From positions 1,308,451 to 1,372,450 of the forward strand of contig CAJINV010000010.1 in assembly GCA_905178155.1 (NCBI GenBank): a DNA stretch of 64,000 nucleotides, in the 5' to 3' direction. Below the pieces are notes generated by a model. The model was not told where the DNA came from. It saw only the letters and a program-made list of their open reading frames with translations, and did no database searches. This DNA is from Amoebophrya sp. A120. Its lineage: Eukaryota; Protista; Dinoflagellata. Below are positions 1-53,700 of the stretch, piece after piece. A program made the translations under genes and the position numbers. Within the stretch, counting starts at the first letter, position 1; every line of letters starts with the position of its first letter.

Positions 1-1794
1 GAAAACGGATCCGAAAACTGGCAACCCGCCGAGCATCGTAACGACTGATTTGCTTACGGTGGAAGACTACATTTGGCGGTGGGACGCGGATTGGTTTTGG
101 TGCACACAAATTTTCCCGGGGCTGCAATTTCAATTCATTCGGTATAGAGGTTAGTAGTCTTGTCTTGATGTTGTATGGCTCTTTTGCGCCTTTTCGGCTG
201 GCAAACTAACTCTCGACTCAGACTAAACGCTGCATCATGACAAGTTTTGTGCAGAAAAAATCGTAAAAATCGTCCAAAATTATCAGGTACCTCTGCGGCC
301 CGCGCCTCCTTCGATCTGATATGTACAAAGTTTTCAACGACAAGTTCACCCGTCTCCTCGCGAAAATCTTCCCGAAAGCGCAGGATATCCCACGAAAAAA
401 CTGCTTCACTGTGATGATTTTGCAAGATCTGCATTACAAGTTTTTTACACATGACACTGCAAATTTGACATGCGCGCTTCCCAAGGGAAAACGCGCCTGA
501 ATATCCCATGCCTTGGAGGTGTAGCAAGACAAATAGTTCTGTGCTCCATTTTCTGCATCACAAGTGCACAGCGCAGCAGTTTTTTCTTGCGATGCAGGAG
601 AACCAGGAGCTGGTGATCCAAGACATTGAGGTTCCGGTGGAAAATTCTGCTCACTGGTATCCACAGTAAATTCGCCGTACACGTACACATGCGGTCTCTG
701 CATGACAAAACTTGATTTCGATCCTAGTCTAGCATGACAAGTTTTACGCTCCAAATTGGTGAAATTTGTGATGCATGTTGTAAATGTACCGGAAATTTGT
801 ATTGCATAACTGGCTCCGTGAGCACTGCCGGATCGTCCGGTCGGATTTGTTCGGAAAAATCAAACTGATATGGATTGCAAAAATGTCTGGGTCTGGAAGG
901 ATGTAACTTGTGATGCTGCATTTGCATGCTACGAAAATCTGTATTGCATGAACAGCAAAAGAGGTCCAGTTTTTGCCATGGCGAGAGGGCATTTCTCATG
1001 CGGTATAGGCATCAGGAAGCCCTCGCAAAATCGGTGATGCTAGGGCATGCATCACAGACGTCAGTAATCATGCAAAACGTGCATGACAAACCTTGCATCC
1101 TGCCAGACCCAGGCATTTTTGCATTTGATAACTGAACTCGGATTACAACGTTGCGGAAACCACGACTACGGATTTGCCATGCAAACTGGAAATAATCGGA
1201 GGCACTACAGCAACTTCTTCTACACCGAATGTTATTGAATCAGGGCAGACACTGCTGGCTGCGGATGTTGAAGATGATGAAAACAAGCCGGCAACAAGTG
1301 GTGCCAACATGATGCGCGAGAGGAAAATTATGAAGGAGTCGACTTCTACTACGACTTGTTCTACGACTCCTCTCAAAAACCCGCCACGCCCGCTGTTCCC
1401 CTTCCACCAGCAGCAGCAAATCAAGAGAACAACCCGGCCCGACACGGTGCCGATCTGGCTATGTCCGGTGCGAGGGACCAGTGCGCCCTTGATGCCGATG
1501 GATGAGAATAAGCTGTACATCAACTTTGGGTTCTGGGACGCGCTGGAAGATACGACCACGAGACCCAAGGAGAGATGTACGACCCTGGGCGGGAACCAAG
1601 CGGGGAACGTGAACAGAGGGCTGGAGGCGATCTGCGACGAAAACGCGGCGATCAAAACGCTGTATTCCACGTGCTACTACACGGAAGAAGAGTTTTACCA
1701 GAAGTACAACGGGGAGCATTACAAGAAGATCAAGGAAAAATACGACGGGAATGGGCGGCTGCGGAGCTGGTTTGCGAGGGTGCGGGGGAGTTGA
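1..1794 (+). CDS. FAD-linked oxidoreductase, Delta24-sterol reductase / actinobacterial Rv3719(TmsA/BfaA)-like; 5' end lies outside the window
   Basis: Joined exons give EDYIWRWDADWFWCT...ELVIQDIEVP...PIWLCPVR...LYINFGFWD...KTLYSTCYYTEEEF...YKKIKEKYD. Removed segments: 142-286 (GT-AG), 386-599, 658-813, 869-1135 (element plus one TSD copy). Stop at 1792-1794. Confidence 0.75.
386..594. mobile_element. Introner family E (209 bp)
   Basis: TSD CAGGA; TIR TATCCCACGAAAAAACTGCT...AGCAGTTTTTTCTTGCGATG; sister copy at 53293 in opposite orientation. Confidence 0.85.
658..808. mobile_element. Introner, singleton (151 bp)
   Basis: TSD ACTGG; TAT...ATA ends; removal restores HW-LREH. Confidence 0.8.
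869..1130. mobile_element. Introner family A (262 bp)
   Basis: TSD ACTGA; TATGGATTGCAAAAATGTCTGGG...CCCAGGCATTTTTGCATTTGATA. Confidence 0.9.
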
Positions 1795-2029
1795 AGGAGG
1801 AGTTTGTGTCAGATTTGACAGTCCTCGCGCGAAAGTGGTTTTGATTTTGATGAAGACAGCACTTGAATTAGAGCCTTTGGCTGAGTCCTCGTCGGTCCTC
1901 GCAGGTTGTGCACTTCGAGGGAGGCCGAAAATGACTATGGCTCACAAAAACTTCTATACTTTTCTCGTCAATTTTCGAAGAGAAGGAATGAAACGAAGAG
2001 CACGATGAATACAATAGAAGACTTCGCCT

Positions 2030-3897: not shown

Positions 3898-6800
3898 ATG
3901 GCCTCGACGCAGCAGGCCCGGCGTCTTGTCGCGGGCGACGGCCCGCAGATTGCTTCTTCCAAGCTTTTCCCAAACCCAAAGGAGTTCCAATGCGACCAGA
4001 ACGCGGACTACTTGAAGAAGAGGTTGCAGGTGTGGGAAAAGGTGAAGGCCAAACACGAAAAGGCTGTTGCCGCTATTCCGAAAAAGCAAATCACCATCAC
4101 CCTGCCGGACGGGAAGCAGGTGCAGGGAACGAGCTTCGAAACCACTCCTTTAATGATTGCAGAGGGGATTTCCAAGAAACTAGCCGGGGACATTGTGGTG
4201 GCGAAGGTAGTAGAATTGGATAGTTCGTGCAGCTCTTGTATGGTCTGTGCATGACAATGACCAAGCACAACTCTGTTGCGTACTATTGCGCATGAGAAGG
4301 ATGGTTCGTAGTTGTCAACAAACCTATATTATAAGGTCTACTACACCGAGCCCATCGCCTCTTTAACGCAATGCGTCGCCGCGGATGAAGAGCCGGACTC
4401 CGATGCTGACGGATCTGATGACGAAGACGCGAAGGAGGACAAATTTGTTCTGTGGGACATCAGCCGGCCACTGGAGGGGAATTGTACGCCGGTGGTTCTT
4501 TTTGTGTAGTGGATGACTTCTGCAGCTCTTTGCCATTGGTAGCTTGAGGCGCGACCGCCCGTTGCTGTTCATCATGCTTCTGGAGCATGACAATTTGAAT
4601 TTCAACAATTTGCAGGTGCGGAATGTTCTTTGCCAGCATCACTAAATTTTGTTCTATAGGTACTCTCCACCTTTTGAAATTTGAGGACAAGCTTGCCTCC
4701 AACGTGTTTTGGCATAGTTCCGCTCACGTCTTGGGAGAAGCCATTGAGGTCGAATTTGGGGCGCACTTGACCATCGGGCCACCCTTGGAGCGTGGGTTTT
4801 ACTACGACGGCTTTTTCGGCGAGAAGAAAATCTCCACGACGGAAGACTTGCCGAAATTAGAGAAGCGCTGCCAGGAAATCGTGAAGGAGAGCCAGCCGTT
4901 TGAGCGGGTCGCCTTAAGCAAGGAGGACGCTCTGGAAATGTTCGCGGACAACCCGTTCAAGGTGCAGTTGATCACGAACAAAGTCCCGGATGGATCCATG
5001 ACCAGCTGCTACCGCTGCGGGCCGCTAGTCGATTTGTGCCGCGGGCCGCACTTGCCGTCCACGGGTAGATGCAAGTCCTTCTGGATCCACAAAAACAGCG
5101 CGAGCTACTGGTACTGATAATCTTCTATTTTGCATGCGACTGACGCTGATTTTCTACTGTTCCTGGTAAAAATAGTGATTCCATGATACAATGCCTTGTG
5201 ATTGTGTACGTGTACGACCTGCACTTTCAACACTTGGCGTGAAAGATAAAACCAGAAGCACGATTCACCACTTCCACCTAGGTTGGGGAAAGACAAGAAC
5301 GACTCCCTCCAGCGCATTTACGGTGTTTCTTTCCCCTCCGACAAGGAGTTGAAGCAGCACAAACTGATGCTGGAAGAAGCCGCCAAGCGCGACCACCGAG
5401 AAATCGGGCGGAATATGAACTGCAAAAGTATCGTACTAGTATAATTTGCATCACAAATCTTGGCAAGAAGAAGAGTGGAATTTGTAATGCTGTGTTACCT
5501 TAGAAAGGAGATTTGTAATGCATATTTGCAATTAGTACAAGTGCGATAGGTTTACACAGGATACGGAAGCAGGAGCTCTGGTTTTTCTCCGACTATTCCG
5601 CCGGGTCCTGCTTCTGGATGCCGCACGGCGCCCGGATCTACAACAAGTTGGTGAGCTTCATGCAGCGGGAGTACGCCATTCGCGGGTTTCAGGAGGTGAT
5701 CACACCAAACTTGGTGCACGAGAGTCTCTTCAAGGCTTCGGGGCACTACTACAAGTACAAAGACGACATGTACAGTATGAACATCGAGGGGGAAAGGTGG
5801 TTTTTGAAACCGATGAACTGCCTATGAGAGTGCACAACCCTCCCTCCCCCTCATGTGTATGGCATGAACAGCAATACAAGCAACAGCAGAAAATGGGCTT
5901 TCGCATGACAAATCTGCATGCGGATTGTAGTACTATGTATAGTTTGTCATGCTAACAGCGCGTACGAGCAAGGTGCGAGTTTGGTACTTTGCATTACAAA
6001 TGAGGGGGAGGGGGAGATGTGCACTGTAATACTGCCCCGGCGACTGCGTCATCTTCGGGCATCGCGTGCGGAGCTATCGGGAACTACCCTTGCGGATGGT
6101 TTCCTTTGGCGTGCTGCACAGAAACGAAAACAGTGGGGCGTTGAGTGGTAGATCTAAAATGTGCTGGCTTGAGTATTTTCTCTCTGTCAACATGATAAAC
6201 AGAAAACATCATTTGGAATAGTTGCATAGCATGTCGTATAGAAGTCGCGTGATCATGTTTTGATGCTTCAGCCGAAACTAAATAGCGAGATCCCTGTATA
6301 TACGTTTTAGGTCTGACCCGCGTCCGTCGCTTTCAGCAGGATGACGGGCATATCTTCTGCCGGATGGACCAGGTGAAGAGCGAAATCAAGTACGCGCTCG
6401 CTTTCGTGCGGTTTGTGTACCAGACGATTGGCTTGGAATACACGATGGTGCTCTCTACCCGGCCGAAAAAAGCCATTGGCTCTGAGGAGGTGTGGACGTA
6501 TGCGGAGAAGGAGCTTGCCGAGGCTCTGAACGAGAACGGTGAGCCCTTGGGCTTGAACAAGGGCGACGGGGCGTTTTACGGACCGAAGATCGACTTCAAA
6601 GTAGAAAATGAGAAACCGTGAGTTACAAATTTTCTTACCGTGAATGTTGGTAGATGAAGTACAACACGATCTAATTTAGGCCAGTTTCAAGCTTCAAAGC
6701 CGACAATTCCATAGCAAAGCTACTCAAAAAACAAAAAGTTTAAAACCGCACCAAACAACTTCTTTTCGTCATCTTCAGGCAAAAGACGCCCTGGGTCGGC

Positions 6801-9726
6801 AGCACCAATGCGCGACGATGCAACTGGACTTCCTGTTTCCGATGCGATTCAACCTCCAGTTCCGCACACAGGCGGACGAGCAGAAGGAAGCTGGCGAGCA
6901 GGCGGCTTTGGGTAACAAGGAAGGAGACAAGACAACTGCAGTTCCTCCGAAAGGCAAAAACGCCGCTTCTGGTGCCGCTGTTGCCATAAATGGGAACGCG
7001 GCCGCGCTGGCCTCCGCGGACGGGGACTCGGCGGGAACCAAATCCGCTGTCGACAAGGAGAAGGAAAAAGAGGCGAAATTGGATATAACCCGCTCAGGTG
7101 TTACAATCTCAAACGTTGCAATAGAGTATTGAAATCTGTGATGCAAGATTGCATGATCTAGCCAAGTCTCATAGGCTTGCGCATGACAAGTTCCAGAGCC
7201 CCAAGCCCCACTATAATCTCGCGAGATTTGTATTGCAAAAGGTGGAAAGCTGTGCGAGTCTGTCATGCTCATCATGCAGCACAAATTCCACATTCTATTG
7301 TAACGTTTGAGATTGTAACGGTTGAGCAAGTCATATTGGAAGCGTACGGGTTGGAGGGCGTCTTGAAACCGGGGCACGAGCGACCCGTGGTGATTCACCG
7401 GGCGATATGGATTGCAAAAGTGCCTGGGTCTGGAAGATTGCAACTTGTCATGCTAAATCCGAATCATGCAGAAATCTGTGTTGCATGACCGCCAAAAGCT
7501 GCCCACTTTCGACCATCTTTGGAAGAAGTTTCTCATGCAGGATAGGCATGGCAGAGACCTCACAGACTCTGTCATGCTAGGTCCCGCATTCCAGACCTCA
7601 TGGGTCATGAAAAACCTGCATGACAAGTTTACACTTACTTTTCCAGACCCAGACACTTTTGCATTTGATAGGCGATTATGGGATCGGTGGAGAGGTTCAC
7701 AGGTAGGAAATAGCAAGGATTCGAATTCGTACTAGTCCTAGTCGTGCTGCTTTACGGCCTACATTTATTTTGCATCATAAGATGAAATAGAATGAAGATG
7801 AGCATAATCTTCCGACGAGTTGTACCGCAATTTATAGATGATGCATGTTCATCAGCGCGTTCTTTATTTCTATCGCACACAAACACAAACACAAACTCAT
7901 ATAACTCATAAGTACGTACCAAACATACAGGCATCCTGTGCGAGCACTACGGTGGTAAGTGGCCATTTTTCCTCAGCCCGCGGCAGATCTATCCTGAGTA
8001 AAAACGTACCCACCCCAGAGTTGTCATGCAGATTTGCCATGACAGGAACATTTGTGATGCGCAACCCCATGACAGGCATTTTCAATCGTGTTTGGGAACT
8101 TGTAATGCTGTAAACAGGATCAGGAGGTCGATTTGTGATGCGGCTTTCCTTGCTAACTTGCACTACCTTACGGACTGAGACTTGTCATGCGTGACTCCTA
8201 AAGCTCCTAGGTTTGTGTTGCAAAATCCTCATCCTGACTCTGGTGTGGGTGCGTTTTTACTCAGGATAAGATCATGATCGTCCCCACCCACGCCGGCCTG
8301 AACAAGTACTGCGAGTACGTTATGCATTGCAAAAGTATCGTACTTCCAGTAGGTGTAGGAACACTCGCATTACAAATTTCCCCAAGAACAAAAATGGAAC
8401 TTGTCATGCTAGATCAGCTACAAGATTCGATTTGTCATGCAGGACTGCAATTGCCAAGAATCCGATGTTTTTGCGATGTATATTCATCGCGGAGCAGTAC
8501 CGCAACTTTGGTCTTTTCGCCGACGTCGACACCAGCAGTAAGACCATGAACAAGAAGGTCCGGGAGGCCCAGCTGGCCCAGTACAACTACGTTGCGATCT
8601 GCGGGGAGAAGGAGCAGGAAAACTTGTCAGTTAATTTGCGGGACCGGGACACGGGGAAACCGGTCGGGGAGTTCGGCTTGAATGATTCGGTGGACATGTT
8701 TGTCGCGAAATCCAACCCGAACAGCAAACCAGCGAACCAGTTTGACGCGTTTGAGGGACGCGTGCCGAAGCCGGCTAGTGCGGGAAGTAGTAGTTCTACT
8801 TCATCATCTGGAACAGGAACATCAACTGGAACTGCGACGAACTTCTCTGTGCAGAAGACGGACAACGACAAGAAGACATCTGCTGCCACTGCGGAGACCG
8901 CTGGCGCAACATCCACGACGAGCAACAAGAAGGAAAATCAATCCAGTATCAGAGGCAAAAATCCCCCCTCCCCATATCGAACAGGTATGCTTCCGAAAAT
9001 TTGTGTTGCTGATTTGAGGTCACGAATCTCGTTTGTCTTGCAAGAAGACAAGGGCAGAAGCTTCCGCCTCATTATGGAATTGATTTGTCATGCTGTTGGG
9101 CCTAAAGGCAAAGGGGAGGCGTTTGCCATGCTGAACAACTAGAGGACCCATACGCCCCTACCTAGCCTGGGGATCTGGCCGCAGGAGTGCCTCTGTGCAA
9201 TACAAACCGGATTTGCGTACACAAATCCAGCATCAGAAATTCCGTTTTGATATGGGGAGGGGGGATTTTTCCTTTCGATATCCAGCAAGAAAAACTGGGA
9301 GGCGCACTTCGCGGAGTTCCCGTACGCTGAGGGGTTTGAACTGTCTGAGACCGATAAGATATGCATTGCAAACATGTCTGATGAATCTGGAAGGATGCAA
9401 GGGTTGTCATGCTTGTCTAGCATGACTGAAGAGTTTGTGCTGCGTGTCCAAGAAGAGACCCTTTTGTTTGTCATGCAAAACGCAGTTTGTCACGCGGAAA
9501 GCGCAACACTAAGAAGCGCAAATATTTCTCATGCTTCGCTGTGCAATACAAAGAGTTCACTATTCACAATTCAGCATTACAAGTTTCCTTTTCCAGACCC
9601 AGACATATTTGCATTTGATATAAGAAACTCTTCGACGACTGCAACAAATCCGGGATGCCGAGCTCCGAGAATTTTCAGCGGTGGTTCGAGCATGTGGGGA
9701 GCTTGGTGCGGGCGGGACGCTGCTGA
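3898..9726 (+). CDS. TARS: Threonyl-tRNA synthetase, eukaryotic cytosolic type, copy 1
   Basis: TGS domain (ITITLPDGK), editing domain ([17 protein letters not shown]), core motifs [48 protein letters not shown], and anticodon domain ([13 protein letters not shown]). GT-AG introns: 4207-4335, 4484-4659, 5111-5281, 6148-6310, 6601-6778, 7703-7930. Also 8 introners. TGA at 9724-9726. Confidence 0.95.
5414..5563. mobile_element. Introner family B (150 bp)
   Basis: TSD CGGAA; TATGAACTGCAAAAGTATCG...CAGGATA; absent from ThrRS copy 2. Confidence 0.9.
5823..6031. mobile_element. Introner family D (209 bp)
   Basis: TSD CTGCC inside the KPMNCP motif; TIR with AGTGCAC and CTCCCCCTC. Confidence 0.9.
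7084..7335. mobile_element. Introner related to family F (252 bp)
   Basis: TSD TTGGA; ~40-bp imperfect TIR containing GTTACAATCTCAAACGTT. Confidence 0.88.
7406..7670. mobile_element. Introner family A (265 bp)
   Basis: TSD GGCGA inside IHRAI; same TIRs as the element at 869. Confidence 0.9.
7990..8268. mobile_element. Introner family C (279 bp)
   Basis: TSD AGATC; TIR TATCCTGAGTAAAAACG...CGTTTTTACTCAGGATA. Confidence 0.9.
8321..8482. mobile_element. Introner family B (162 bp) with decayed right TSD
   Basis: Left TACGT, right TTCAT; TATGCATTGCAAAAGTATCG start; paralog reads EYVAEQ without interruption. Confidence 0.85.
8947..9280. mobile_element. Introner, singleton (334 bp)
   Basis: TSD TCCAG; TIR AAAAATCCCCCCTCCCCATATC / GATATGGGGAGGGGGGATTTTT. 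Confidence 0.88.
9360..9620. mobile_element. Introner family A, subfamily A2 (261 bp)
   Basis: TSD TAAGA; close sister of the element at 20743. Confidence 0.9.
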
Positions 9727-10978: not shown

Positions 10979-13900
10979 ATGGCCACGACGCAGCAAGCCC
11001 GGCGTCTAGTCGCCGGCGACGGGCCGCAGATTGCTTCTTCCAAGCTTTTCCCGGATCCGAAAGAATTCAAATGCGGACAGAATGCGGAATACTTGAAGAA
11101 AAGATTACAGGTGTGGGAGAAGGTGAAGGCAAAACACGAGCAAGCGATCGCGAAAATCCCAAAGAAGGAGATCACGATCACACTGCCGGATGGCAAGCTG
11201 GTAAAGGGGACGAGCTTTGAAACCACGCCAGAATCGATTGCTGTTGGGATATCGAAGAAGCTGGCAGAAAAAATCGTCGTGGCTAAGGTACTGAGTGTTC
11301 GCGAGTAGAATCATGATCTTCACTTTGCTTTATGCAGAAGTGTGCCCGTGATGTGGTCTTCCTTTCAATCGGCGTCTACTACCGAAGAAAGCACGCGTTT
11401 TCATTTTCCGCATGACAAGCTAAATCACATTACAAAATCAGGTCTATTACTCCGAGACCATTGCGTCACTGTCTCAAGTAGTAAACGCCGATGAGGAGCC
11501 AGAGTCTGACGAGGATGGGTCAGATGACGAGGATATCCTGAGTAAAAACGTACCCACACCATAGTTGTCATGCAACTCTGCATGCTTAAAATGTTTCTCA
11601 TGCGGAGCCCCATGAGAAGCATTTTCTAATGCGGTTTTGAAATTTGTCATGCTCCAATCAGCACGAGATACTAGATCTGTAATGCTGCTAAACTAGCTTA
11701 AACAGCACTACACTACGCGGAGAAACTTGTCATGCCAAACAACCAAAGCTGGCTGATTTGTCTAGCAGATTCCCCATCTTGACTCTGGTGTGGGTACGTT
11801 TTTACTCAGGATAGAGGAAGACGCTAAGGACGAGAAATTTGTCCTCTGGGACATCTCGAGACCACTGGAAGGAAACTGTATTCTTGCAGCACTTCTTGTT
11901 TTTCAATTCTAACTCGCGTTGATCACTAAGCTCGGGGGCGTACTCCGCGTTGATCACTAAGCTCGGGGGCGTACTTATTTCCGGCAAGCTTTAATGCATT
12001 TCGCAAAGAAGCGAGCCGCCGGGCATTCAAGCCTGGGGCCTAATTTTTCTGTCCGACTTCCACGATCCTCAAGAGGCGACGGGGATAGTGGTTGTTTTCG
12101 TCGGGGGCTAAGGATTCTCTCCAGCTCTTAGGAAGTATCTTTTGAACGCCAAGCGTGAGGGTGGTAGCGCGAAGCGAACCCCAATTGAACTTCCCTTCAC
12201 TGCTAAAACGGGTGGTGTTGCGTCGTTCGAGATGCCTGGCTCTCAATGCAATCCAGAGCAGATGATTAGCCTTCAGAAAATTTAAGCGGTTATTAGTGCA
12301 GTTTCTGGCTCACCTAGGTAGCTCCTACAGTACCGAAGAAGCTTGTGCTGAATTGTTTTTCAATTCTGCACACCTTGGCTGCGTGACAGAGTTTTTTTTT
12401 GACGTGCATGCATTGCTTCTGGTTCTTTGCACTTCAACAAGCTGCTCTACTTTCTCGAGGCGCCTGTTTGCAGTGCTTTTCTGTAGTAGGTACAACCAGA
12501 TGAATTCATTTGTATTGCAAGACGACCATGAAGATCATGATCAACCGGCACGGAAATCATATCAGGCACCCTCCACCTCCTGACGTTCGACGATAAGCTT
12601 GCGTCCGACGTTTTCTGGCACAGCTCCGCTCACGTGCTGGGGCAGTCGATCGAAGTGGAGTTCGGAGCGCACTTAACCATCGGGCCCTCGTTGGAGAAAG
12701 GGTTCTACTACGACGGTTTTTTCGGAGACAAGAAAATTTCCACGACGGACGACCTGCCGAAATTAGAGAAGCGTTGCCAGGAAATCGTGAAGGAAAACCA
12801 GCCGTTTGAGCGGGTTACTCTGACCAAAGAAGACGCGCTCGAAATGTTCGCGGATAACCCCTTCAAAGTGCAGCTGATCACGAACAAAGTGCCGGACGGA
12901 TCCATGACCAGCTGCTACCGCTGCGGGCCATTAGTCGACTTGTGCCGCGGACCGCACCTGCCGTCCACGGGAAAATGCAAGTCCTTCTGGATCCACAAGA
13001 ACAGCGCAAGTTACTGGTATCATCTTTATATATCACGATGGTGTATGTTGTAGGTTTTTCTTGCAGCGAGTTTGAGACTTGCATGAAACTCAAGATGAAC
13101 ATGAAAGACGAATAAGTTGTTTTACCATCGTACCATCGGCTTCATCGTGTCACATAGGTGTGACGTCAATTATACCGATCTTTGTCAACAACAGTCCTCT
13201 GCGTCTGCGCCATGGCATGCGAGATGCCTATTTGCGTGGCACCGCACGCCTTTTCGCCACCGCACGCCCACGCCCACCCCTGCCGCCCCAGCTGCGCATA
13301 GCATGCTCGTCGCTCCGCTTTACGCCGCGCCGCGCTGTCTAAAACCAAAACCGCAACGCTGCGGTAGCAATATGTGCTTCCCAAAACGAACAAAATGCAA
13401 ACTCTAGGGAAGGAACTACAGCAACAAAACGAAAAGCATCATCTTGTTCCTCCCGATCATCCAAAACAAAAGTAGGCAAGAACCGCCCGAATGATCAAAC
13501 TAACGAACTACACAACTTCACCACAACAGGCTGGGTAAGGATAAGAACGATTCCCTCCAGCGCATCTACGGTGTCTCCTACCCCTCCGACAAGGAACTGA
13601 AACAGCACAAGACACAGCTCGAGGAAGCGGCTAAACGCGACCACCGGGAGATCGGGAAAAAGCAGGAGCTCTACTTCTTCTCCGACTTCTCCGCCGGCTC
13701 CTGCTTCTGGATGCCCCACGGCGCCAGGATTTACAACAAGTTGGTGGAATTCATGCGCCGGGAGTACGCGATTCGCGGGTTTCAGGAGGTGATCACGCCA
13801 AATCTGTACCACGAGTCTTTGTTTAAAGCGTCCTATGCATTGCAAAAGCATCGTACTAGTATAAATCGCAATACAAATTTTCTCAGAAGGAGAAATGGAG

Positions 13901-16381
13901 TTTGTAATGCTGATTTGGCTAAGAAACAAGATTTGTCATGCATGATTGCAATTAGTACTAGTGCGATACTTTTGCAGAGCATACGTCCGGACACTACTAC
14001 AAGTACAAAGACGACATGTACAACATGGACATTGTATCAAACAAAAAAGTGTTAACGTTAACGGTTTTCATAGATTGCAAATATGCATGACACATTTTGC
14101 CTAGCATGCGTGCTATGCATGACAAATTTGGGCGCGTTTTGTGATGCGTTACTGCATCACAAATTCCGTTGACGTTAACGCTTTTTCCTGTGATACCTTG
14201 AGGGGGAAAGATGGTTTCTGAAGCCCATGAACTGCCCAGGGCATTGCGTGGTTTTCGCGCACCGCGTGAGGAGTTACCGGGAGTTGCCGCTCCGGATGGC
14301 GTCCTTCGGAGTCTTGCACAGAAACGAGAACAGCGGGGCGTTGAGTGGTATACTTTTGTAGCCAGGGTTTTTTTTCTTTGACGCGAAGGAATGTGTAGTC
14401 AAATCAAAGTCGTGCACACTGTGCTGCGGTCCAGGAGGGGCTTGTTGAATGCTTGTATTGCGATGCTTTCTCTACTAAGTACGGGAGTACGAAATCCGTC
14501 TCAACATACAACTCGCACACCCAACCAATTACCAGGTCTGACCCGTGTCCGGCGGTTCCAGCAGGACGATGGCCATATCTTCTGCCGCATGGACCAGGTG
14601 AAATCCGAAATCAAAAACGCCTTGAAATTCGTGCAGTTCATCTACGAGACCATCGGTTTGGAGTACACCATGGTCCTTTCCACCCGCCCAAAGAAGGCAA
14701 TCGGCAGCAAGGAAGTGTGGGCCAACGCGGAGAAGCAATTAGCAGAGGCTTTGAACGAAAGCGGACTCCCGTGGGGGCTGAACAAGGGAGATGGGGCATT
14801 TTACGGACCGAAAATCGATTTCAAGGTATGTCGAGTTTTATTGGGATAGATTTTCAGATCCTTTTCGTTACATCACACAACATCTCGTAGTTGCTAAAGT
14901 TACAAGTTAGTATGCTTGTCGTTGTCACGCCGCATGTTGACACCAAAATCGGATTCTCATGATAGTGGCGTCAGGCTCACAAAGAAGATCAATCAATACT
15001 AGCGTCAAATATCATGCTTGTGTACATTCGATTGTGAACTCCCATTACCCCAGGTTAAAGACGCGATCGGGCGTCAGCACCAGTGTGCGACGATGCAATT
15101 GGATTTCCTTTTCCCGATGCGTTTCAACCTGCAGTTCCGCACGCAGGCGGACGAGCAGAAAGAAGCCGAGGCTGCCAAGGCCGAAGGAGAACAAGCACAG
15201 GCAGCAGGAGCTGCTCCGAAGGAAACCAAGGAGAACAAGAAAGACAAAAAAGCCGCTGCTGCTGCCGCTGAGCCGAAGGAACCGCGAGCGTCTGCTACGT
15301 CTGCAGATGGCGGTGCACCAGCGGCGGATGCTGGAAAATCTGCTGCCGACAAGGAGAAGGAAAAGGAACAGAGAATGGAAGCGGTTGGGTTGGAAGGTGT
15401 GCTGAAACCCGGTCACGAGCGGCCGGTCATGATCCACCGTGCCATTCTAGGATCCGTGGAGAGGTTCACAGGTACTGACGTGTAAGGGAGTCATGTAAGT
15501 TAAGATCTAGTGAGGTTTTTTCTTTGATGATGCAATAAACAATGTTGCGCTTCATCTACAACTGAATTGAAAGTGCAAGTGCTGTCTGCATGAAATCCAC
15601 ATCCAAATCAGGTATCCTGTGTGAGCACTACGGCGGCAAGTGGCCGTTCTTCATCTCCCCGAGACAGGTGATGATCGTCCCGACGCACGCTGGTTTGAAT
15701 AAGTACTGCGAGTACGTCGCCGAGCAGTACAAAAACTTCGGCATCTTCGCTGACGTCGACACCAGCAGCAAGACCATGAACAAGAAGGTCCGGGAAGCGC
15801 AGCTGGCCCAGTACAACTACGTTGCGATCTGCGGGGAGAAGGAACAGTCGGCGTTGGCGGTCAACTTGCGGGATCGCGACACGGGCAAGCCGCTCGGGGA
15901 GTTCTCGATTAAAGATTCCGTGGAGATGTTCGTCGCGAAATCCAACCCGAACAGCAAACCTGCGAACCAATTTGACGAATTTGAGGGCCAGAAGCCGGAG
16001 CCAATCGGCGCCGGGAAAAATGGTGCGTCTTCAAGCAGCTCCGCAGCTTCTTCTGCATCAAAACCAGAAAAGTTATCCGCGGAAACAGCAGGTGCGTCGA
16101 GCAAAAACGACTCTACTACTTCGAAGGAGACCACTGCAGCTGCTGGAGGTGCGAAGAACAAGAAGCAGGAACATCAGAATAATGGTGAGAACAACAAGAA
16201 CGGGGCAATAAAGAAGGATTGGGAGTCGCACTTCGCACAGTTTCCGTACGCTGGCGGATTTGAGATGTCCGCGACAGACAAGAAATTGTTCGAGGAGTGT
16301 AAGGGCGGCATGCCGAGTTCGGAGAATTTTCAGCGGTGGTTCCAACACGTAGGAAGCTTGGTAAGAAGTGGGATTGTGTAG
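10979..16381 (+). CDS. TARS: Threonyl-tRNA synthetase, copy 2 (tandem paralog)
   Basis: Same motifs as copy 1, with KPMNCPGHC intact. GT-AG introns at the same codon positions: 11288-11441, 11878-12565, 13017-13529, 14348-14535, 14826-15053, 15472-15611. Three introners. Confidence 0.95.
11534..11813. mobile_element. Introner family C (280 bp)
   Basis: TSD GAGGA; near-perfect TIR TATCCTGAGTAAAAACGTACCCACACC. Confidence 0.9.
11911..12352 (-). mobile_element. Probable 5'-truncated non-LTR retroelement fragment inside a GT-AG intron
   Basis: Exact 15-bp direct repeat TTGTTTTTCAATTCT at 11896-11910 and 12353-12367; ~31-bp tandem repeat at the left end; the equivalent intron in copy 1 is only 176 bp. 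Confidence 0.55.
13834..13983. mobile_element. Introner family B (150 bp)
   Basis: TSD CGTCC inside FKASGH. Confidence 0.9.
14035..14195. mobile_element. Introner, singleton (161 bp)
   Basis: TSD CATTG/CCTTG; TIR with GTTAACGTTAACGG / CCGTTGACGTTAAC. Confidence 0.85.
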
Positions 16382-19632: not shown

Positions 19633-22600
19633 ATGGACGCTGCCACCACGACCCTCACCCCCGATCAGGAGGAGCAGCTCACCCTGTTCCGGGAGGTGAC
19701 GGCGAACGAGGACCGACAGCGATGTATCCAGTACCTGGAGATGAGCAACTGGAATGTGGAACAGGCCATCAACTTGTCCATGACCGGCGCATTAGACAAC
19801 ACACCAGCAACAGGCTCCGACCACGCGGCCGCCATGAACTTCATAACCGGCGACCACGAACCGGCAATAGGACCACAACAGCAGACCAGGCCGAGTGGGG
19901 GGGTAGAGCAGAGCTTCTTTTTGTTGAGGATGATAGATGCATGATTACTTGTCTTCTAGTTGGAGATCGTTGGATGGGACATACTACCTGTCTTGCGCGA
20001 TCAACATCGGGTCGTGCAGCTGTTCTATAACCCGCCGTGCGGTGCTTCAAAGTAAGTAAATGTAAATCGACACTACAAGAGACAACAATACAATATGCTC
20101 AGTACAAAGAAACAACTCAAACCAGGACCCCGACGCATCCCTCGCCCAAAAAGTGGTCGAGAAGGTCGGCAACGTATCCTGTGCAAAAGTATCGTACTCG
20201 TATTGCAATCATGCATTACAAACTTTTTTCTCAAGGGAAAACAGCATTACAAATTTTATTTCTCATGCTGAGGGAATTTGTCATGCATTTATACGAATAC
20301 GATACTTTTGCAGTTCATACAACGCCGCCAGCAAGGTACTCAACGGCATCGGCGGGTTTCTGCACTCCATGTTGATCCCGGACGAAGTATGAACTGCAAA
20401 AATGTCTGGGTCTGGAACATTCTAAACTTGTGATGCTGTCTCTGGATTCTGAAAAAATTTGTATTGCATGACCAGCAAGAGGGCTCCAGTTTGTGCTACG
20501 CAGAGCGGTCATTTTTCATGCTGTAGAGGCATCACAAAGCGCTCTAAAAATCTGTGATGCTACGGCATGCATCACAGACATCATGAGCCATGGAAAATAT
20601 GCATGACAAATCTAGAAATCTTCCAGGCCCAGACACTTTTGCATTTGATACGATGACGGGTATAACAACAACACCTCCGGCGGAAGTAGTTCCAGCAGCA
20701 GCAGTGGTAGAGCGAACCGGAACAGTTTCAAAGCGTACTACGTATCAAATGCAAATGTGTCTGGGCCTGGCAGATTGTTTGTCATGCTTGTCTGGCATGA
20801 CTGAACAGTTTGTGATGCGTGTCAAAGAAGAGACCCGCCTTGTACAACTTGTCATGCAACAACGCAGTTTGTGTTTGTCATGCGGAAAGCGCAACACTAA
20901 GCAGCGCAGATATTTCTCATGCTTGGCTGTGCATTACAGAGCATCCACTATTCCCAACCCAGCATTACAAGTTTCCAGAACCAGACATATTTGCAATGCA
21001 TACTACGAGCGACAATACAAGACGGACGCTTCGACCGCCTGCCCGGACTTTTTCGACGGAACGTTTCAGCAGGCAATAACGAAAGCGAAGGACAACATGA
21101 AACTCCTTATGGTCTACTTCCACTGCGAAACCGCAAGTTTGACCGACGACTTTTGCAAAAACTGTCTCAACAACGACATCGTGACAGTGATGTTGAGTGA
21201 CACGTGCGTCAGCTTCGGGGCCGACATAAACGACCGGACCAGTTACGACTTGGCAAGGCAGTTTCAGGTATTTGTTTTGTTCTTGTGGACGCGGACGTCG
21301 TCGTGTTTGGCTGCATGACAAAAATGCCAGAATTGACGACCGCCTGCAAAACGAGTCGTGATACATCATGAACGTGAAGGAAAGTAAACAGATTTTTACA
21401 AGCTACACGACTCATGTGCACCATGAATCACACAAACAAACTTCATGACTTTTCAGGTTCAACGCTACCCGTACCTGGCGCTGGTGCTTCCCGTCTCCGC
21501 AACGGACTACAGGATACTTCACAAAGTCGACGGGCAGGTATGAAAATGAAGTTATTTGTGACGTTGCATGACAAAGTGAAGACACAGAAGTGGCGACGAT
21601 AGATTTGCCATGCTATGCTGAAAGAAGAAGTAGATGCAGTGCTGCTCATACGACTTTGATTATTTTGTGATGCAAATCATGTATCCAAACAGCAAGCCGG
21701 ATCAGTTGACGGCCTCGTCGCGCTTTTGACCCAAGCCGCCGACGACCTGGAGCAAAATCGTATCAAGTGTAAAAGTGTCTAGGTCTGGAAGAATGCATGC
21801 TTGTCTGGCATGCTTGTCTGGCATGACTCGAGAATCTGTGTTGCATAGGCACGAAAAAACCCTCTGGCCTGTCATGCAAAAGCGCAGTTTGCCATGCGGA
21901 ATACGTAAGACATGGCAGCCAAAAAAATTGTCATGCATGTTATCATGTCGTACTGCAGTGCGTCTATCATTATTTTTAGCATATACAATTTTCCAGGCCC
22001 AGACATATTAGCAATCCATAAACCGGGCCCAGCTAGTAACGCAAGCGAACCAAGTTCAGCACGACAGGCTTCTGCGCGCCGAGCAAGACAGGGAGTATGA
22101 AGAGGCTTTGGCGAAGGTACAGTGTGGCTGGTTTGTCATGCAGACTGTCAATGCATATACAACAGCGTTGTCCTCCTGCTCCTCACGAGTGCGCAACACA
22201 AGTTTTTTTCTGAAAAGAATCTTCCTTGATAAATTTCATATCACCTCCTCCACAGGACCGCGAAGCCGAGGCCGCACGGCAGCGGGAGGAGGAGGCCCGA
22301 CAGAAGGCGCTGGAAGAGGAAAAACAGGCCCAGCTCGCCAGGGAGCAAGCGGCGAAAGACATCGAGGCGAAAAGGAGAAAACTGGCGACCGAACTTGTCA
22401 CTGTGGACCCAAGCACGACGGAAGCCAAGACGAAGATACAAGTGAAATTCCCGACGGGGCAGAGGGTATCTTTACTTTACTAAAACTAGGAATGAATTTG
22501 TTTCTATTTTCACCACTTGGGTCAACGTCGTCATGCGGTACCAGCATGCTAGGCGAAGTGGAAAGAAATCAGGCTTTGTCTGTTGCAACATGACAAATTG

Positions 22601-43627: not shown

Positions 43628-43664
43628 ATGAAGATGGAGCTAGACTTCTACCGACCAGCTGCAT

Positions 43665-47823: not shown

Positions 47824-50800
47824 ATGATGATCAACTTTTGGTTCTTTTCCTCCGTCGCTCACGCGACAGGAGCCAGCAGCAGCGTTATTTCATCCAGTAC
47901 AACTAGAGCCCCCGCCTACAACACGAGTCCGAGACTCGTAGAAAACGGGGCCGCACCACCAGCAGCAGCACGGTCTCGCTCCTCCAAGACCACATTACGG
48001 CGCATGGGAAAAAGCAGAGGCTCCATGTTGAATTTGGAAGCAGCGGGATGGCACAATAACCTCGGAGCAGGCGGGATGATTAACAACAACTCCGGTAGTA
48101 CTAGTCAAGATCTTCAAGAAATAAGACAAGCTCATCTACCCTCCTCACCTGGGACGTTTACGATGGAACAAATAGGCCCCTCCACTTCATCTGGTGCGGC
48201 GCGGCCGGAAGTTGATGGTGCTGCATCAACTTCAGCAGCGCGGGGAACAGCTTCTGGGGTCGTATTGACCAGCACGCCTACTTCTCCACATCAAGATCCT
48301 GTCGCTTTCCAGCCCCAGAAGAAGTCTCGTCAGCAGCAGAATCTTGATATGATAGTGCACGACTCCTCCTCCACCCTCTCGTTTGTGTTGCATGAACAGC
48401 AACACAAGCGCTGACAAAGATGCAGCTTTTGCATGAGAAATTCCTGGAGGATTTTAGTGCTGTTTTGGATTCCGGATTCTGTCATGCAAACAGTGCTAAC
48501 AGGCATAGGGTGGACTTGGAATTTTGCATGACAAATGAGGGGGAGGGGGAGTTGTGCACTTTCATACTTGAGCGGGCAAATCGACGAAACGTTCCCGGTG
48601 TCCCAAAGCCAGGGGCTCCAATTAATATCGGCGTACAACTACAGGCAGGGCAGTCACGACCCTTCGTGTCCGCAACTTTTCTTCCGATAGGAGATGATGG
48701 TGGGACGACAGCACCCGCTGGTAATACTAATAGCGGAGCGGCACGTCAACCATCGGCTAATTATCATGCGGGTGACGGTGGTGCATATGATTATCCGAAA
48801 AGTGATCCCACCGCTCTTGCTGCTGGTGATTTGGCACACGCACAAGGAAGTGGCGCTGCGCAACAAAGCACCGATCCGATAACTTCACCCAGTGGGGGTG
48901 AACCACGACGAAATACAGGGCCAGCGGCCAGCAGCGGAGCTACTTCAGCAGCCATGCCGCTGAGTCTTGAACAGTGGTGGGATCAGACTACGAGGGACAA
49001 AGACGACACGCTGGCCTCGTCTATCGTGCGGGCTAGAGTATGCAGTGCAAAAGTATCGTACTCGTCGTATAAATGCATTACAAATTTTCTCAGCATGAGA
49101 AATGTAATGCTGATTTACCATAGCATAAGAAGAAGATCTGTAATGCATGATTCTTGCAATTACTACGAGCAGTACGATACTTTTGCACAGGATACAGAGA
49201 GCAGCGCAGCAACATTGGCGGGTCATCGGGGACAGGATCTTCTGCGGGGACCATTGGAAGTACGAACGATGTTGTGGGCGGAGTCTTGTCTCCCCAACAG
49301 AGTTCTGGGGGCGGGTACGCAGCGCTGCAAAGTGGCCAACCCGTGCAGACGTCCTCGCAATCTGCTTTCAGCAACAGCGGTCTTCATGCCCAAGAAATAA
49401 GTCCGATGCAGCGCCGCAATTCTGTCAGCGGACGCCTTTTTGGAGCAGGACAAAATGGAGCATCTACTTCATCTCCATCGCCAACGTCGGTCTTCAACAA
49501 CCACGGCGTCTTCCAGAAACATTTTCATCGGCAGCAAGTGATGTCGAGAAGCGTGGGCAACAGTCCGGCCGCTGGGATGAGATCGGCACAGCAGATGAAG
49601 AACGTAGGACCACAGGCGCAACGACTGTATAGTACAGACTCAAACGACCGTCTTGGGGGCCGCAGTAGAGGAGCTGACTCGACGACAATGCGCCACGTTG
49701 ATGTGACACCACATAGTACTTTAACTGATCAACATCACCTCACCATGAAAGCCTCGAGCGGCCGTGGGCGATCGCTTACGCAGGGCCGCTCCTCCAGGGC
49801 GGGCGCGGGAACAACTACCGGTGGAGCTGGTGCTACGGGGAATATTAACATGCGTGGAAGAGGAAGTTGCGCACAGCAAAATCAACACTATCACCATGCT
49901 CCTGCGTCTCAATACTCCGGATCCTCCTGCAGTCCTGGCGTGACCTCTCCGTTCGCGCCCCACGGGCGCGGCCACGGGCTCATTACCAGAACTCTGTACG
50001 AAAGTCACTTGCAGCAACATCAGCAACAGCTGTACGAGCAGGAGCAGGAAGATGCAAGAAGAAGAGCATTATACATCAACCCATACGGTCGCCCACCAGC
50101 ACCTTACGGACAATCCCCCTCCCCGCCCTCCGATAATATGTCGCAGTCCCTTCCGCGGACGATTGGAACGATCAGCAGTTTTTTGGGTGGCGAAAGCCGC
50201 GCCCCGTCAGGTTGTCGACACGTAAGCAGCTGCGGGAGCATATCTTCTCCGGTGGAGCATGATATTGTGGTGGACGAAGTAGACGATCCGTTTCCGTACA
50301 GCTGCAGGAGGTCTTGTTCCCGTGAGGACCACCCGCTGGGCAGAAGCATGTCCGCGACGTCCCGAGAGGCTGGTGCTGGACCACGGGGGGGCAGCTCTAC
50401 AACTTCCAGAGAAGAAGTAGAAGACGTCGCTTTTGACCTCCGGCCCACCTCTCTTGATGCCCCTGCTGCTGCTCGTCTCGCACGGGCGTCAGCATCTTAC
50501 CATTACCTGATGAGCGGCGGTGATTTGTCGGACGATATTAACAACATTCCCGACGTCGAGAGAGGGAACTCGTCAAGCAATCTATGCATTGCCAAAGTAT
50601 CGTGCGTAGTATGAATCGCATGACAACAAATTACTTTATAAATAGTCTCAAGAAGAAACTTGGAATTTCTCATTCAGGTACGACTACGAGGCCAGATTTG
50701 TAATGCATGACTGCAATTCAATACACGATTGCGATACTTTTGCAGAGGATGCGACTGGTTCCAACAACTGCTCACCTATGGTCCAGGAACTCCATTATCA

Positions 50801-53700
50801 AATGCATATTGCATGTCTGGGTCTGCTGGTGGAAAGTTGTGATGCAAATCGCTGAAGAATGGTGGCCGCGGACTCCTGCAAAGATAAGCAGCCAAGCATA
50901 ACAAATTTTTGAGCAGCTATGTGTTCCGTTTTTCGCATCACAGTCACAAACTGCGTTTTTTCTTTTATTTCTCCTTATGCATCACACAGTTAAGAATTAT
51001 CTCAGCCCGCTCGAACATGTTGAGAAACTTGCACTCTTGTTCCATATTAGTTATCACCCAGACATATTTGCTATGCATATTCCCCGCCAGAGGAAGAGTT
51101 CGCCGATAGCGAGTGCTCGCACAGGAGCAGGGCGCATTCACCGCTAGTGAATCAAAGGGCCAGCTGGGTGGATGAGCGTCATGCTCATGAGGTGTCTGAA
51201 GCCAGCAGCAGAAGCTCCTCGCCGGAACTTCGCCCGGGCGGAGTTGTTGATGGTACTAGATGCTGTATTTTACTTAATACTATGGTGCTCTTGCTGAGGG
51301 ATTCGGTTTACATTCAGCGTTCAGCACTGGTAATGTTATTCTGCAATAAAGTTGCTGACTCTGTTGATGAAGACCGCGACGCGATGAAGATGTTTCAGTT
51401 TCGGCATCGCTTCTTTATTCGTAGGGATTTTTCTGTTTCTATTTAGTTTCTTCAATTTCCTTTCCGTTTCCGGTGTGATTGAATACAATTGACGAGGAAA
51501 ATTTCAACCTCTTATTTCTTCATCAGGTCCTACTATGCAATTGCTGTCCACGGTTGCAGCTACTCCCGCGGGACCACATCCGTTAGCGCCACCGTCCGAT
51601 CCGGAGCAAAGCCGGCGCCAAGAGGTTGAGGTAGTGAGATCTTTACGAGATGTTGCCCTCCTGTGCTGATGTTTGATGTGCAGGCGCACGTAGGTGTAGT
51701 TTCTATCTAAGTAGAACTACTAGAGTTAGGAATTTGTTGTTAACGAAAATCTTACCTTGTTCGCTAAGCAAGCTCAATGGTAATGGACCACTTCACCGAC
51801 CGCTGCATTTGAAAAAAAAAAAATGCTAACAATTTTGTGCAGGCCTCGCCACAGAATCAAGTTTCTTCGGCTAGTAATGCAGGGCATCAAGAACAAGCGG
51901 AGGCTCTTTCTTCCGTGGACGACCGGGATCAACATCTGCAGTTGCTGCAAGTGCTTCCCTATAATCATCCAGACGCTGCATCTGATCGTCGTCCCAGAAG
52001 TAGCATCTTCGTCCCGCCGCGGCAGTTTTCTTCTGAGGGTCGTTGCACGACTGACCCGCCCTTTTCTCGACAGAATACCGTCAGCTCCCAAGAAGAGTCG
52101 TCGTCTGGCAACAGCGGTTCATTGCAGCGCGCAGGAGCGGTCTCCTCTTCGGTTAGTACAGAAGCAGTACGACGAGTGTCCAAACGGGGCTTGCACGACC
52201 AGCACCAGCACGGGACGAGCCAACTGTGCAAGAACAGAGCGGCCTGGGACGATAAAGGGCTGTCGTCTACTCCTGATTCCGCCGACGGGCGGGTGATGAC
52301 GGGCGGTGCAGCTGGCGCTGTCGATGACGGTACTACTCAGATGGAGATGAATGCAGATGCTGGCGATGCAGCTGGTGAACAAGAGTACTATACGGATGAA
52401 AATTCTGACCATGATTCCGTGGTCTCCGGGCCGCAAACCCTCAGCCAGCTTCTGGGATTGCAGCTCCGGAACGACGGAAACAGTAGGAGCTCAAGTAAGA
52501 CACCTTCTTCATCGTCTTCGCAAGAAGAACAACACGATCCAGACGGTGCAGTAGAAGTAGAGGCGGCTCGCCGACGAGACACAGACACCTCAACATCTTC
52601 CCCAGCACATGGATCATATGAAGATCCGAGGGAGATGATGATCTTCCCACCAACTGGCGGTGCTGCCCACACCGGTCCACCACAAATGTTGACAGCTTGT
52701 TCATCTCTCCAGAGAGTCGGATCCTCAGCATCTGCCTCTGCGATGCAGCTGCACCAAAAGGGAATAAATACAAAGGATTTATTGTACTCTACTACTTCTA
52801 CTACACTGAGCTGCACAAGAACTCCTGGTGGTAGTTGTGCCACGAGGACCTCCCAGGAGCCGGCGCGGGGAAGTAGAGAAGTCGGGGATCGTTGTGGTTC
52901 TCATCGTGCAGAGGGGTCAGGAGCGCCTGCTGGTTATGGTTTCCCGCCGAAGACTAGTAGTACATCAACTTCCGGACTACTGATATGGCGTTCTCAAACG
53001 TTACATTCTCAAATGTTGCAGGGATTTGTGATGCAAAGACGGCAAAAGAGAAAGGGGCGAGCTTGCAACTCTCGCATCACAAATTCGGCACAGATGTCGA
53101 TGCTGTCTAGCCTTTAGCCCTTCGAGAATTTATCATGCGAAGCAGCTTGGTAGTCTGCAGGCTCGTGGTCATTTTGCATGACAAATCATGTAACAGTTGA
53201 GAGTGTAAGGCTTGCGAATGCCATAACTGAAAGCGAAGAAAAACTCGACAAGCTTCTCGAGCGGACTATCTGACTACATGCTCAACATGCACTATCGCAA
53301 GAAAAAACTGTTTCACTGTAAACTTGTAATGCAGAAACTGTATCTCAAAAGTGTTTGTCTTGCTACACATGCAAGACAGGCGATTTTTGGCTGTGTTTTC
53401 CCTTAGAAACCTCGCATGGCAAGTTTTCCCTGTCACGTGTAACGAACTTGTCATGCCAAACTTGCAAAATCCTTACAGTGAAACACTTTTTTCTCACGAT
53501 ATGCACACACCGAAATATCAGGCTGAAGAAAATCTTCACCCACAACTTCTGCACCTTCGAGTTGTAAGTAAAGTCATTATGCAAGCTGCATATTTTATAC
53601 CACAAGCATTTGTTTTTGTGCACGTATTTATGCATGCATGATTTGTGCGAGTTGAAAACCGAAATTATCACGGATGGTCGATGAAATAGAAACTGTTGTT
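47824..53700 (+). CDS. Orphan low-complexity (S/G/T/Q-rich) protein with signal-peptide-like N-terminus; 3' end uncertain, possibly extending to 54072
   Basis: ORFs 47791, 48420, 49154, 51147 and 51837 join in frame after removing 6 introners and GT-AG introns at ~51253-51526 and 51631-51842; a further donor GTAAGT at 53564. Confidence 0.6.
48348..48566. mobile_element. Introner family D (219 bp)
   Basis: TSD CTTGA; TIR TATGATAGTGCAC / GTGCACTTTCATA. Confidence 0.9.
49039..49194. mobile_element. Introner family B (156 bp)
   Basis: TSD TAGAG/CAGAG; family B TIR. Confidence 0.88.
50583..50751. mobile_element. Introner family B, degenerate (169 bp)
   Basis: TSD CAATC/CGACT decayed; ends in GGATG. 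Confidence 0.8.
50796..51079. mobile_element. Introner related to family A, degenerate (284 bp)
   Basis: TATCAAATGC...GTCTGGG / CCCAGACATATTTGCTATGCATA; TSD TCCAT/TTCCC. Confidence 0.8.
52984..53225. mobile_element. Introner family F (242 bp)
   Basis: TSD ACTGA; sister of 30070. Confidence 0.9.
53293..53501. mobile_element. Introner family E (209 bp)
   Basis: TSD TGCAC; TATCGCAAGAAAAAACTGTTTCACTGTA...TACAGTGAAACACTTTTTTCTCACGATA. Confidence 0.9.

Follow-up and report, generated by a model that had tools for sequence, protein, structure and literature searches.

Why does one nine-letter word recur in the introns of a dinoflagellate genome, in inserted and in ordinary introns alike? The question is raised by a 64,000-nt stretch of Amoebophrya sp. 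A120 (contig CAJINV010000010.1, positions 1,308,451 to 1,372,450; "the window" below means this whole stretch), which is eukaryotic and gene-dense with its genes on the + strand, and by an earlier note on its sequence, which described the word, written here as TTGTNATGC, as common to introners (introns made by hairpin-forming transposons) and to canonical GT-AG introns. The introners of this lineage have already been published; new here are the internal word, its lattice of spacings, its conservation and its presence in canonical introns, and no paper linking the word to Amoebophrya or to introners was found among the literature matches listed. How introners move, and how the cell removes them without a splice-site consensus, is not known, and the word gives a handle on these questions.

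The word is concentrated in introns

The window holds 94 matches to TTGTNATGC on its two strands, compared to 2.30 ± 1.48 in 100 dinucleotide shuffles (largest 8), and GCATGACAA, with 52 copies, is its most frequent 9-mer. The copies are split between the strands (51 + and 43 -), the variable letter N is C in 52, A in 20, G in 20 and T in 2, in agreement with the C, G or A noted earlier, and each single-mismatch variant has at most 19 copies compared to the 94 exact ones, so that the word is sharply defined. The earlier observations that it recurs in nearly every introner and is rare in exons and intergenic DNA both hold, as 81 copies lie in 32 of 33 hairpin introners (7.4 kb together), 9 in GT-AG introns and only 4 in the remaining 51.6 kb.

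Introns were assigned to classes from joints seen in RNA, from a search for TAT...ATA ends with flanking repeats and, for six elements, from ends set by hand. The splice evidence came from contigs of four runs labelled 'RNA?' (X3-X6; the label is a guess), which were mapped to the window. These contigs contain 45-46% of the words sampled from a 9.9-kb stretch of the window, they fuse exons exactly, and in 20101-27000 their depth is 20-470 in exons compared to 0-2.6 in intergenic bins; the exact exon joints and low intergenic depth mean that they fit transcripts. Joints were taken from those listed, the best 15 of 33 in 1-20000 (where seven skip GT..AG introns and seven skip non-GT-AG stretches with 3-6 letters repeated at both borders) and the best 15 of 17 in 20101-27000 (five at GT..AG introns and six at non-canonical ones, the other four being weak joins of repeat copies). 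The canonical sample was 12 RNA-supported GT-AG introns from four genes and the non-canonical sample 13 RNA-supported introns. Three raw RNA runs that carry the same species label (X9-X11) contributed 4, 42 and 92 partly fitting reads, all on repeats, and no usable splice joints. Reads of X10 and X11 fell only on the copies of one introner family (8005-8671 and 11340-12006), at 95-99% likeness and with long loose ends, so that related elements are present in the RNA of that other material and the genes of the window are not.

Copies of the word by class of DNA:
RNA-supported non-canonical introns (13): 32 copies in 3019 bp, at least one copy in 12 of 13
Other introners, defined by ends or by hand (20): 49 copies in 4392 bp, at least one copy in 20 of 20
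RNA-supported GT-AG introns (12): 7 copies in 2891 bp, at least one copy in 6 of 12
GT-AG introns inferred from the paralogue: 2 copies in 293 bp, at least one copy in 2 of 2
Low-GC unannotated control DNA (GC 0.44): 2 copies in 25,331 bp
Remaining higher-GC DNA: 2 copies in 26,312 bp

Compared to composition-matched DNA outside introns, the canonical introns carry the word at about 30-fold greater density (odds ratio 30.7, Fisher p = 3.5e-6); the earlier note had named a lack of such enrichment as what would refute its idea, and this refuting result was not obtained. Markov simulation of the canonical introns gave an expectation of 0.23-0.53 copies and never more than 3 in 300 runs (7 were observed), and a prior-free ranking of k-mers in the 12 canonical introns placed GCATNACAA first among gapped 9-mers and CATGACAA first among 8-mers. 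These results confirm that TTGTNATGC is strongly enriched in the introns of the window and show that it is specific to introns.

The introners form one superfamily

A search for TAT...ATA ends found 19 elements, all 19 with a 5-bp flanking repeat, while candidates with a repeat of at least 3 bp numbered 0, 1 and 2 when three shuffled sequences were searched in the same way. Seeding the search on the 5-bp repeat (5, 8 and 7 raw candidates on shuffles) added three elements, giving 22 intact ones in all, every one of which has TAT...ATA ends and a repeat of exactly 5 bp; by eye from the lists, about 15 of the 22 have a run of A behind the terminal TAT. The introners and their copies of the word are given here, with target-site duplication abbreviated to TSD and terminal inverted repeat to TIR.

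380..593 (+): introner (non-canonical intron); 2 exact copies (431-, 555-); RNA joint 379>594; TIR and 5-bp repeat CAGGA
653..808 (+): introner; 3 copies (700-, 732-, 766+), spacings 32 and 34; RNA joint 652>809
863..1129 (+): introner, family TGGGTCTGG; 2 inverted subterminal copies (908+, 1081-); RNA joint; TAT..ATA, TSD ACTGA; long hairpin, z -9.0
5414..5563 (+): introner, family GTATCGTACT; 3 copies; TAT..ATA, TSD CGGAA
5823..6031 (+): introner; 3 copies; TSD CTGCC
7084..7335 (+): introner; 1 copy; TSD TTGGA
7406..7670 (+): introner, family TGGGTCTGG; 2 copies; TSD GGCGA
7990..8268 (+): introner, family CCTGAGTAAAAAC; 5 direct copies, spacings 31/48/33/49; TSD AGATC; alignment
8319..8484 (+): introner; 3 copies; ends set by hand; BLAST group
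8941..9279 (+): introner; 1 copy; RNA joint; TSD TCCAG
9360..9620 (+): introner; 3 copies; TSD TAAGA
11529..11813 (+): introner, family CCTGAGTAAAAAC; 3 direct copies; RNA joint; TSD GAGGA; fold z -9.5
13829..13983 (+): introner, family GTATCGTACT; 2 copies, 31 apart; RNA joint; TSD CGTCC; fold z -7.3
14032..14197 (+): introner; 3 copies, including a perfect TTGTGATGC-N6-GCATCACAA hairpin; RNA joint
20170..20319 (+): introner, family GTATCGTACT, inverted relative to its relatives; 3 copies; RNA joint
20387..20654 (+): introner; 3 copies; RNA joint 20386>20655 (GT..AT); imperfect target repeat
20736..21000 (+): introner; 5 copies; RNA joint; TSD CTACG
21759..22023 (+): introner; 1 copy; RNA joint
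25423..25598 (+): non-canonical intron; no exact copy, one with a single mismatch; weak terminal pairing, z -1.7; RNA joint
25985..26297 (+): introner; 4 copies; RNA joint; TSD AGGAC
28469..28735 (+): introner; 3 copies; ends set by hand; BLAST group
28801..29106 (+): introner; 3 copies; TSD TTGCG
29383..29637 (+): introner, inverted relative to its relatives; 2 copies; TSD TGAGG
30070..30308 (+): introner; 2 copies; TSD TACCT
31752..31903 (+): introner; 1 copy; ends set by hand; BLAST group
31960..32238 (+): introner, family CCTGAGTAAAAAC; 3 copies; TSD TCTGG; alignment
34186..34338 (+): introner; 4 copies; TSD CCTCG
48348..48566 (+): introner; 1 copy; TSD CTTGA
49040..49195 (+): introner; 1 copy; ends set by hand; BLAST group
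50583..50750 (+): introner; 2 copies; ends set by hand; BLAST group
50796..50960 (+): truncated introner; 2 copies; ends set by hand; BLAST group
52984..53225 (+): introner; 3 copies; TSD ACTGA
53293..53501 (+): introner; 2 copies; TSD TGCAC

The 33 elements fall into 12 BLAST groups with no likeness between groups, so the description of the introner families as unrelated is right for their interiors; it is not right for their ends and their insertion chemistry, as the TAT...ATA ends and 5-bp target duplication are common to them. Removal from RNA at non-GT-AG borders was seen at 13 joints among those listed. The terminal duplex has z of -4.4 or below in 11 of the 13 non-canonical introns, folds of whole elements range from z -7.3 to -9.5, and relatives lying in opposite orientations (13829-13983 and 20170-20319) are both removed.

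The target repeat of the element at 20387-20654 is imperfect (CGAAG / CGATG) and thus the RNA joint fixes the cut: the intron consists of 1 nt of the left repeat, the element and 4 nt of the right repeat, and reads GTAT...CGAT. The introns at 14032-14197 and 21759-22023, which have a short ambiguity, are compatible with the same cut. With such a cut introner RNA would begin NTAT, near the GTAT or GTAC of all 12 canonical donors; the GTAT donors pointed out previously, nine in number, are all RNA-supported and the other 3 of the 12 are GTAC. The intron at 25423-25598, shifted by one letter, reads GTAC...CT, with an ordinary-looking donor and a non-AG end.

Spacing, pairing and orientation of the word inside introners

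Adjacent copies (allowing up to one mismatch) lie 30-34 bp apart in 44 of 122 pairs, compared to 7.4 ± 2.6 under random placement, and a lattice of about 16/32 bp was seen in 10 of 11 families. Among copies oriented alike the commonest spacing is 31-33 bp, and among convergent ones 16-17 and 45-49 bp, while the distance from the tip of the element to the first copy is mostly 31-52 bp. The spacers between copies are unlike one another, while the word and the spacing are kept. Some families form long palindromes with a pair of facing subterminal copies, and one family has five to six copies, all direct.

The earlier note had proposed that the word might be a unit of RNA pairing, which is poorly supported. 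An inverted partner (up to 2 mismatches, within 11-25 nt) was found for only 19 of the 94 copies, and a local hairpin was rejected as the general unit; in the palindromic family (7 copies aligned, 6 of them motif-bearing) the facing N letters are non-complementary in 5 of 6, and one family has direct copies only. A structural RNA stem, with a paired partner nearby and compensatory changes, was rejected on the same counts and on the conservation of the same eight letters in all families; selection on a stem alone would let these letters drift, so it appears to be the sequence itself that is recognised.

The orientation of the word relative to the coding strand was approached with a codon-usage strand classifier trained on exons of the window, which was correct for 9 of 13 held-out short exons. 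In other loci (described below) it placed elements both ways round: 6:6 in family 1, 10:12 in family 2, 2:6 in family 3, which has direct copies only, and 2:6 in family 6. A cruder call from purine skew, undecided in half of the cases, agrees that copies lie both ways; the frame that stays open once an element is excised was not a reliable guide to the gene strand. This evidence is weak and matches the balanced strand counts in canonical introns. The word is independent of orientation and intron-specific, and the earlier idea of a strand-symmetric, intron-marking signal holds as a description (51+/43- overall, 3+/4- in the RNA-supported canonical introns, across 12 BLAST groups).

Conservation of the word in further loci

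A scan of metagenome contigs for two copies of the word at a spacing of about 32 bp gave at least 130 stretches, and the introner-type matches among those listed came from a single assembly (prefix JACKZZ01), in 49 loci that total 97 kb. The JACKZZ01 loci carry the same introner families as the window at 75-94% identity, and so lie elsewhere in the same genome or in one very close to it. Of the other matches, the multi-copy ones inspected (7 loci) were simple satellites, and the remaining matches hold just the two matched copies. In element copies of the JACKZZ01 loci that the scan had not selected (unique, without the scan pattern) the word was present in 52 of 58, with 105 copies in 13.7 kb.

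In five family alignments comprising 67 copies the majority-base frequency was 0.93 for the eight fixed letters, 0.90 for the terminal 25 nt, 0.79 for other columns and 0.77 for N (motif compared to other columns, Mann-Whitney p = 5e-18). Variants shared between copies occupy 3.8% of motif cells compared to about 16% of flank or other cells. The rate of private substitutions was 0.030 for motif columns compared to 0.052 for flanks (p = 3e-4) and 0.024 for terminal repeats, which is only a hint of constraint after insertion because such changes may be shared with unsampled copies. Across these alignments the word is conserved to the same degree as the terminal repeats, while N drifts.

The word in canonical introns

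The canonical introns that carry the word are as follows.

11288..11441 (+): canonical GT-AG intron; GCATGACAA at 11410; RNA joint
21268..21456 (+): canonical intron; GCATGACAA at 21313; RNA joint
21538..21692 (+): canonical intron; copies at 21566 (-) and 21665 (+); RNA joint
22117..22255 (+): canonical intron; TTGTCATGC at 22133; RNA joint
22466..22685 (+): canonical intron; GCATGACAA at 22619, with ACATGACAA 31 nt upstream; RNA joint
25682..25813 (+): canonical intron; TTGTGATGC at 25731; RNA joint
4209..4336 (+): GT-AG intron; GCATGACAA at 4249; inferred by comparison with the paralogue only
4496..4660 (+): GT-AG intron; GCATGACAA at 4585; inferred by comparison with the paralogue only

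All nine sites listed for canonical introns in the earlier note exist, seven of them in introns with GT..AG joints seen in RNA and two, 4249 and 4585, in introns inferred solely from the paralogous gene. Among the 12 RNA-supported introns, 6 have no exact copy and 2 have not even a copy with one mismatch, and the introns with the word are clustered, with 5 of 5 introns in two neighbouring genes compared to 1 of 7 in the second threonyl-tRNA synthetase (ThrRS) gene. No fixed distance from the word to either splice site was found in the canonical introns.

The two ThrRS genes are tandem paralogues (3894-9000 and 10975-16400, with an HGTP_anticodon match at 15566-16381), in which the canonical intron positions are common to both and the introner complements differ. 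Their first exons are the same in 247 of 315 columns, their first introns are unalignable, and GCATGACAA is in both of these introns at different places. In the JACKZZ01 loci there are several GT...AG-like stretches with two copies 31-33 bp apart, some of which were picked by the scan pattern and none of which has RNA support.

What may read the word?

The reading that we tentatively prefer, while holding it at somewhat less than even confidence, is that TTGTNATGC is an internal repeat common to one superfamily of hairpin introners, with its TAT...ATA ends and 5-bp target duplication, that it may be read on double-stranded DNA by a sequence-specific protein, that this protein would mobilise or escort the elements and so serve transposition, and that the motif-bearing GT-AG introns may descend from introners. 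A protein-binding site, which the earlier note gave as one of its options, fits best with the sequence pattern, in which eight letters are fixed while N drifts, the spacing is regular and orientation is irrelevant. Several copies of a short word inside the TIR ends, common to non-autonomous relatives, are what is expected of subterminal repeats and are found here. Should the word turn out to serve transposition, it would reveal the protein, missing so far, that mobilises the elements.

A number of observations weigh against this preferred reading. No transposase was found within the window, and none is reported for the strain in the available part of the text of PMC7789003. About 25 kb of equally AT-rich DNA outside introns holds no introner and only 2 copies of the word, which is unusual for a cut-and-paste element. 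The orientation of the word relative to the element tip varies between families, and the strand classifier is weak, with 9 of 13 test exons correct and 24 of the 33 window elements called +, 6 called - and 3 undecided. Confinement of the word to the elements, as expected of a transposase site, was not found, as 7 copies lie in 6 canonical introns without the ends or likeness of introners; a site used for transposition only has no reason to persist in elements without ends, and the canonical copies are too clean for old neutral relics, in which the word should have decayed with the rest. The canonical introns also lack terminal pairing (z -2.0 to +1.9 in 14, compared to -1.7 to -11.8 in the 13 non-canonical introns), their best local alignments to the 33 introners after masking of the word are within the range of shuffles, and in the 97 kb of extra loci their only relatives were short matches around the word. 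The earlier idea that these are old, domesticated introners is neither shown nor excluded: the introns lack a hairpin at their ends and have no introner likeness outside the masked word. The earlier interpretation as a whole is partly supported.

The main rival, which we consider somewhat less likely, is that a host factor reads the word, as DNA or as structured RNA, and aids the recognition or processing of both kinds of intron, with introners carrying the word because only word-bearing copies are tolerated inside genes. This would explain both the canonical copies and the restriction to genes, and it is favoured by the presence of the word in 6 of the 12 RNA-supported canonical introns with no other introner trait, by their 30-fold density over composition-matched DNA, by the top rank of GCATNACAA and CATGACAA in these introns, by the word in both of the unalignable first introns of the ThrRS paralogues, and by the lower rate of private substitutions in motif columns than in flanks, though these may be shared with unsampled copies. 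The A120 genome is described, in the part of PMC7789003 available, as having no detectable U1 small nuclear RNA (snRNA), with the removal route of its non-canonical introns unknown, which also fits a host factor. However, half of the canonical introns have no exact copy, so the word is not required or essential, and two lack even a one-mismatch copy; one non-canonical intron without an exact copy is still removed; and the canonical matches are clustered in two genes rather than spread through the ThrRS gene. A host mark would point to a new way of defining introns. Its boldest form, which we think distinctly improbable, would make the 9-mer lattice the cis-signal of a new intron-definition system in a parasite without detectable U1 snRNA; if this were true, a dedicated factor would find and excise hairpin introners and some ordinary introns, and transposons carrying the mark could colonise coding sequence freely.

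It is more doubtful again that the word is a passive relic without present function, inherited from an ancestral unit some 32 bp long and surviving because the copies are recent or through deletion between direct copies, with the canonical copies being fragments of unsampled families. Spacings of 16, 32 and 48 bp do fit a tandem unit, and about 1954 families are given for the strain in the part of PMC7789003 available, compared to the 12 groups sampled here, so parent families may have been missed. Against a relic, the spacers are dissimilar while word and spacing are kept, variation at the fixed letters is a quarter of that in the flanks while at N it is like background, and exact copies outnumber every one-mismatch variant.

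Least probable of these is a single-stranded RNA element in the pre-mRNA, either a splicing enhancer of GCAUG type or a branch-site-like UGAC. In one orientation the word reads GCAUGACAA, which contains both GCAUG and UGAC, it is restricted to introns, and its enrichment there over other DNA of the window is a trait of splicing enhancers. However, specificity for the sense strand was not found (3+/4- for exact and 6+/5- for one-mismatch copies in the RNA-supported canonical introns), the family with direct copies only occurs in both directions with respect to the coding strand as inferred, splice sites lie at no constant distance from the word, and flexible RNA would not be expected to keep copies at a regular 31-34 nt; with strands balanced and elements both ways round (the latter from the weak classifier), a single-stranded RNA signal is unlikely. 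A branch site in particular was rejected, as N is A on the GCATNACAA strand in only 2 of 94 copies although UAAC would be the best branch site. The RFX X-box, the PUF-type UGUANAUA, the m6A motif DRACH and the apicomplexan TGCATGCA resemble the word in part, but none fits all of its eight letters or its occurrence on both strands.

Whether it serves transposition, as we tentatively suggest, or the host, a sharply defined word that every family carries at fixed spacing, and that ordinary introns contain too, can be used as bait for protein capture and as a variable for genome-wide tests.

Other features of the window

Inter-gene stretches at 2000-3300, 17000-18200 and 23500-25200 have GC of 0.60-0.75 compared to 0.43-0.44 in introns, and no introner lies in them. 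Long open reading frames on the + strand follow one another at 27226-53117 (289-667 aa among ten tested, with no Pfam match) and are interrupted only by introners; the lineage is reported to have many orphan genes, which these frames fit. A unit of 39 bp, internally palindromic, is repeated in 13 tandem copies (76% matches) at 43011-43518, with open frames on both strands and without the 9-mer. A Copia-type long terminal repeat (LTR) retrotransposon lies at 54664-60896 (-); its 532-bp LTRs have TG..CA ends, its target repeat is GGTAA (5 bp), and a frame of 1163 aa includes an RVT_2 domain. The length of its duplication is as in the introners and its ends are unlike theirs; a link between the two was ruled out as these ends are TG..CA and not TAT..ATA.

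Comparison with known systems

In TIR elements such as Ac/Ds, En/Spm and Hermes, the transposase binds to short sites that are repeated near the ends in either orientation. The word described here is like the subterminal repeats of those elements in being short, in occurring in both orientations and in lying inside the ends of non-autonomous, otherwise differing elements; it differs in its 16/32-bp lattice, in the confinement of the elements to genes, in its presence in introns without transposon ends and in that no transposase is known. Intronic enhancers such as (U)GCAUG are likewise short words enriched in introns and rare in exons, and one strand of TTGTNATGC contains GCAUG, but here the word is strand-symmetric, multi-copy, regularly spaced and without a positional link to splice sites.

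The introners of other protists (Gozashti et al. 2025, PMC12130899) are, like those described here, introns made by transposons, and in the part of that paper available the A120 families are classed as TIR DNA elements of unknown superfamily. The introners of the other protists carry or co-opt canonical splice sites, and no internal word common to them is reported in that part of the text.

For A120 itself, the part of Farhat et al. 2021 (PMC7789003) available describes elements averaging about 240 nt that are excised from RNA with no consensus at their ends; their inverted repeats begin TAT, followed by about 7 variable letters and then a run of A, and their borders carry short direct repeats (3-5 nt). 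That text, apart from the figure logos S19-S25, covers only the terminal repeats and is silent on an internal 9-mer, on how copies of it are spaced and on any occurrence in canonical introns, and the direct repeats of 3-5 nt given there compare to exactly 5 in all 22 intact elements here. With those published introners the elements of the window otherwise share their ends, border repeats, length (about 150-340 nt), non-GT-AG removal and end hairpin, and they likewise lie inside genes and belong to many families.

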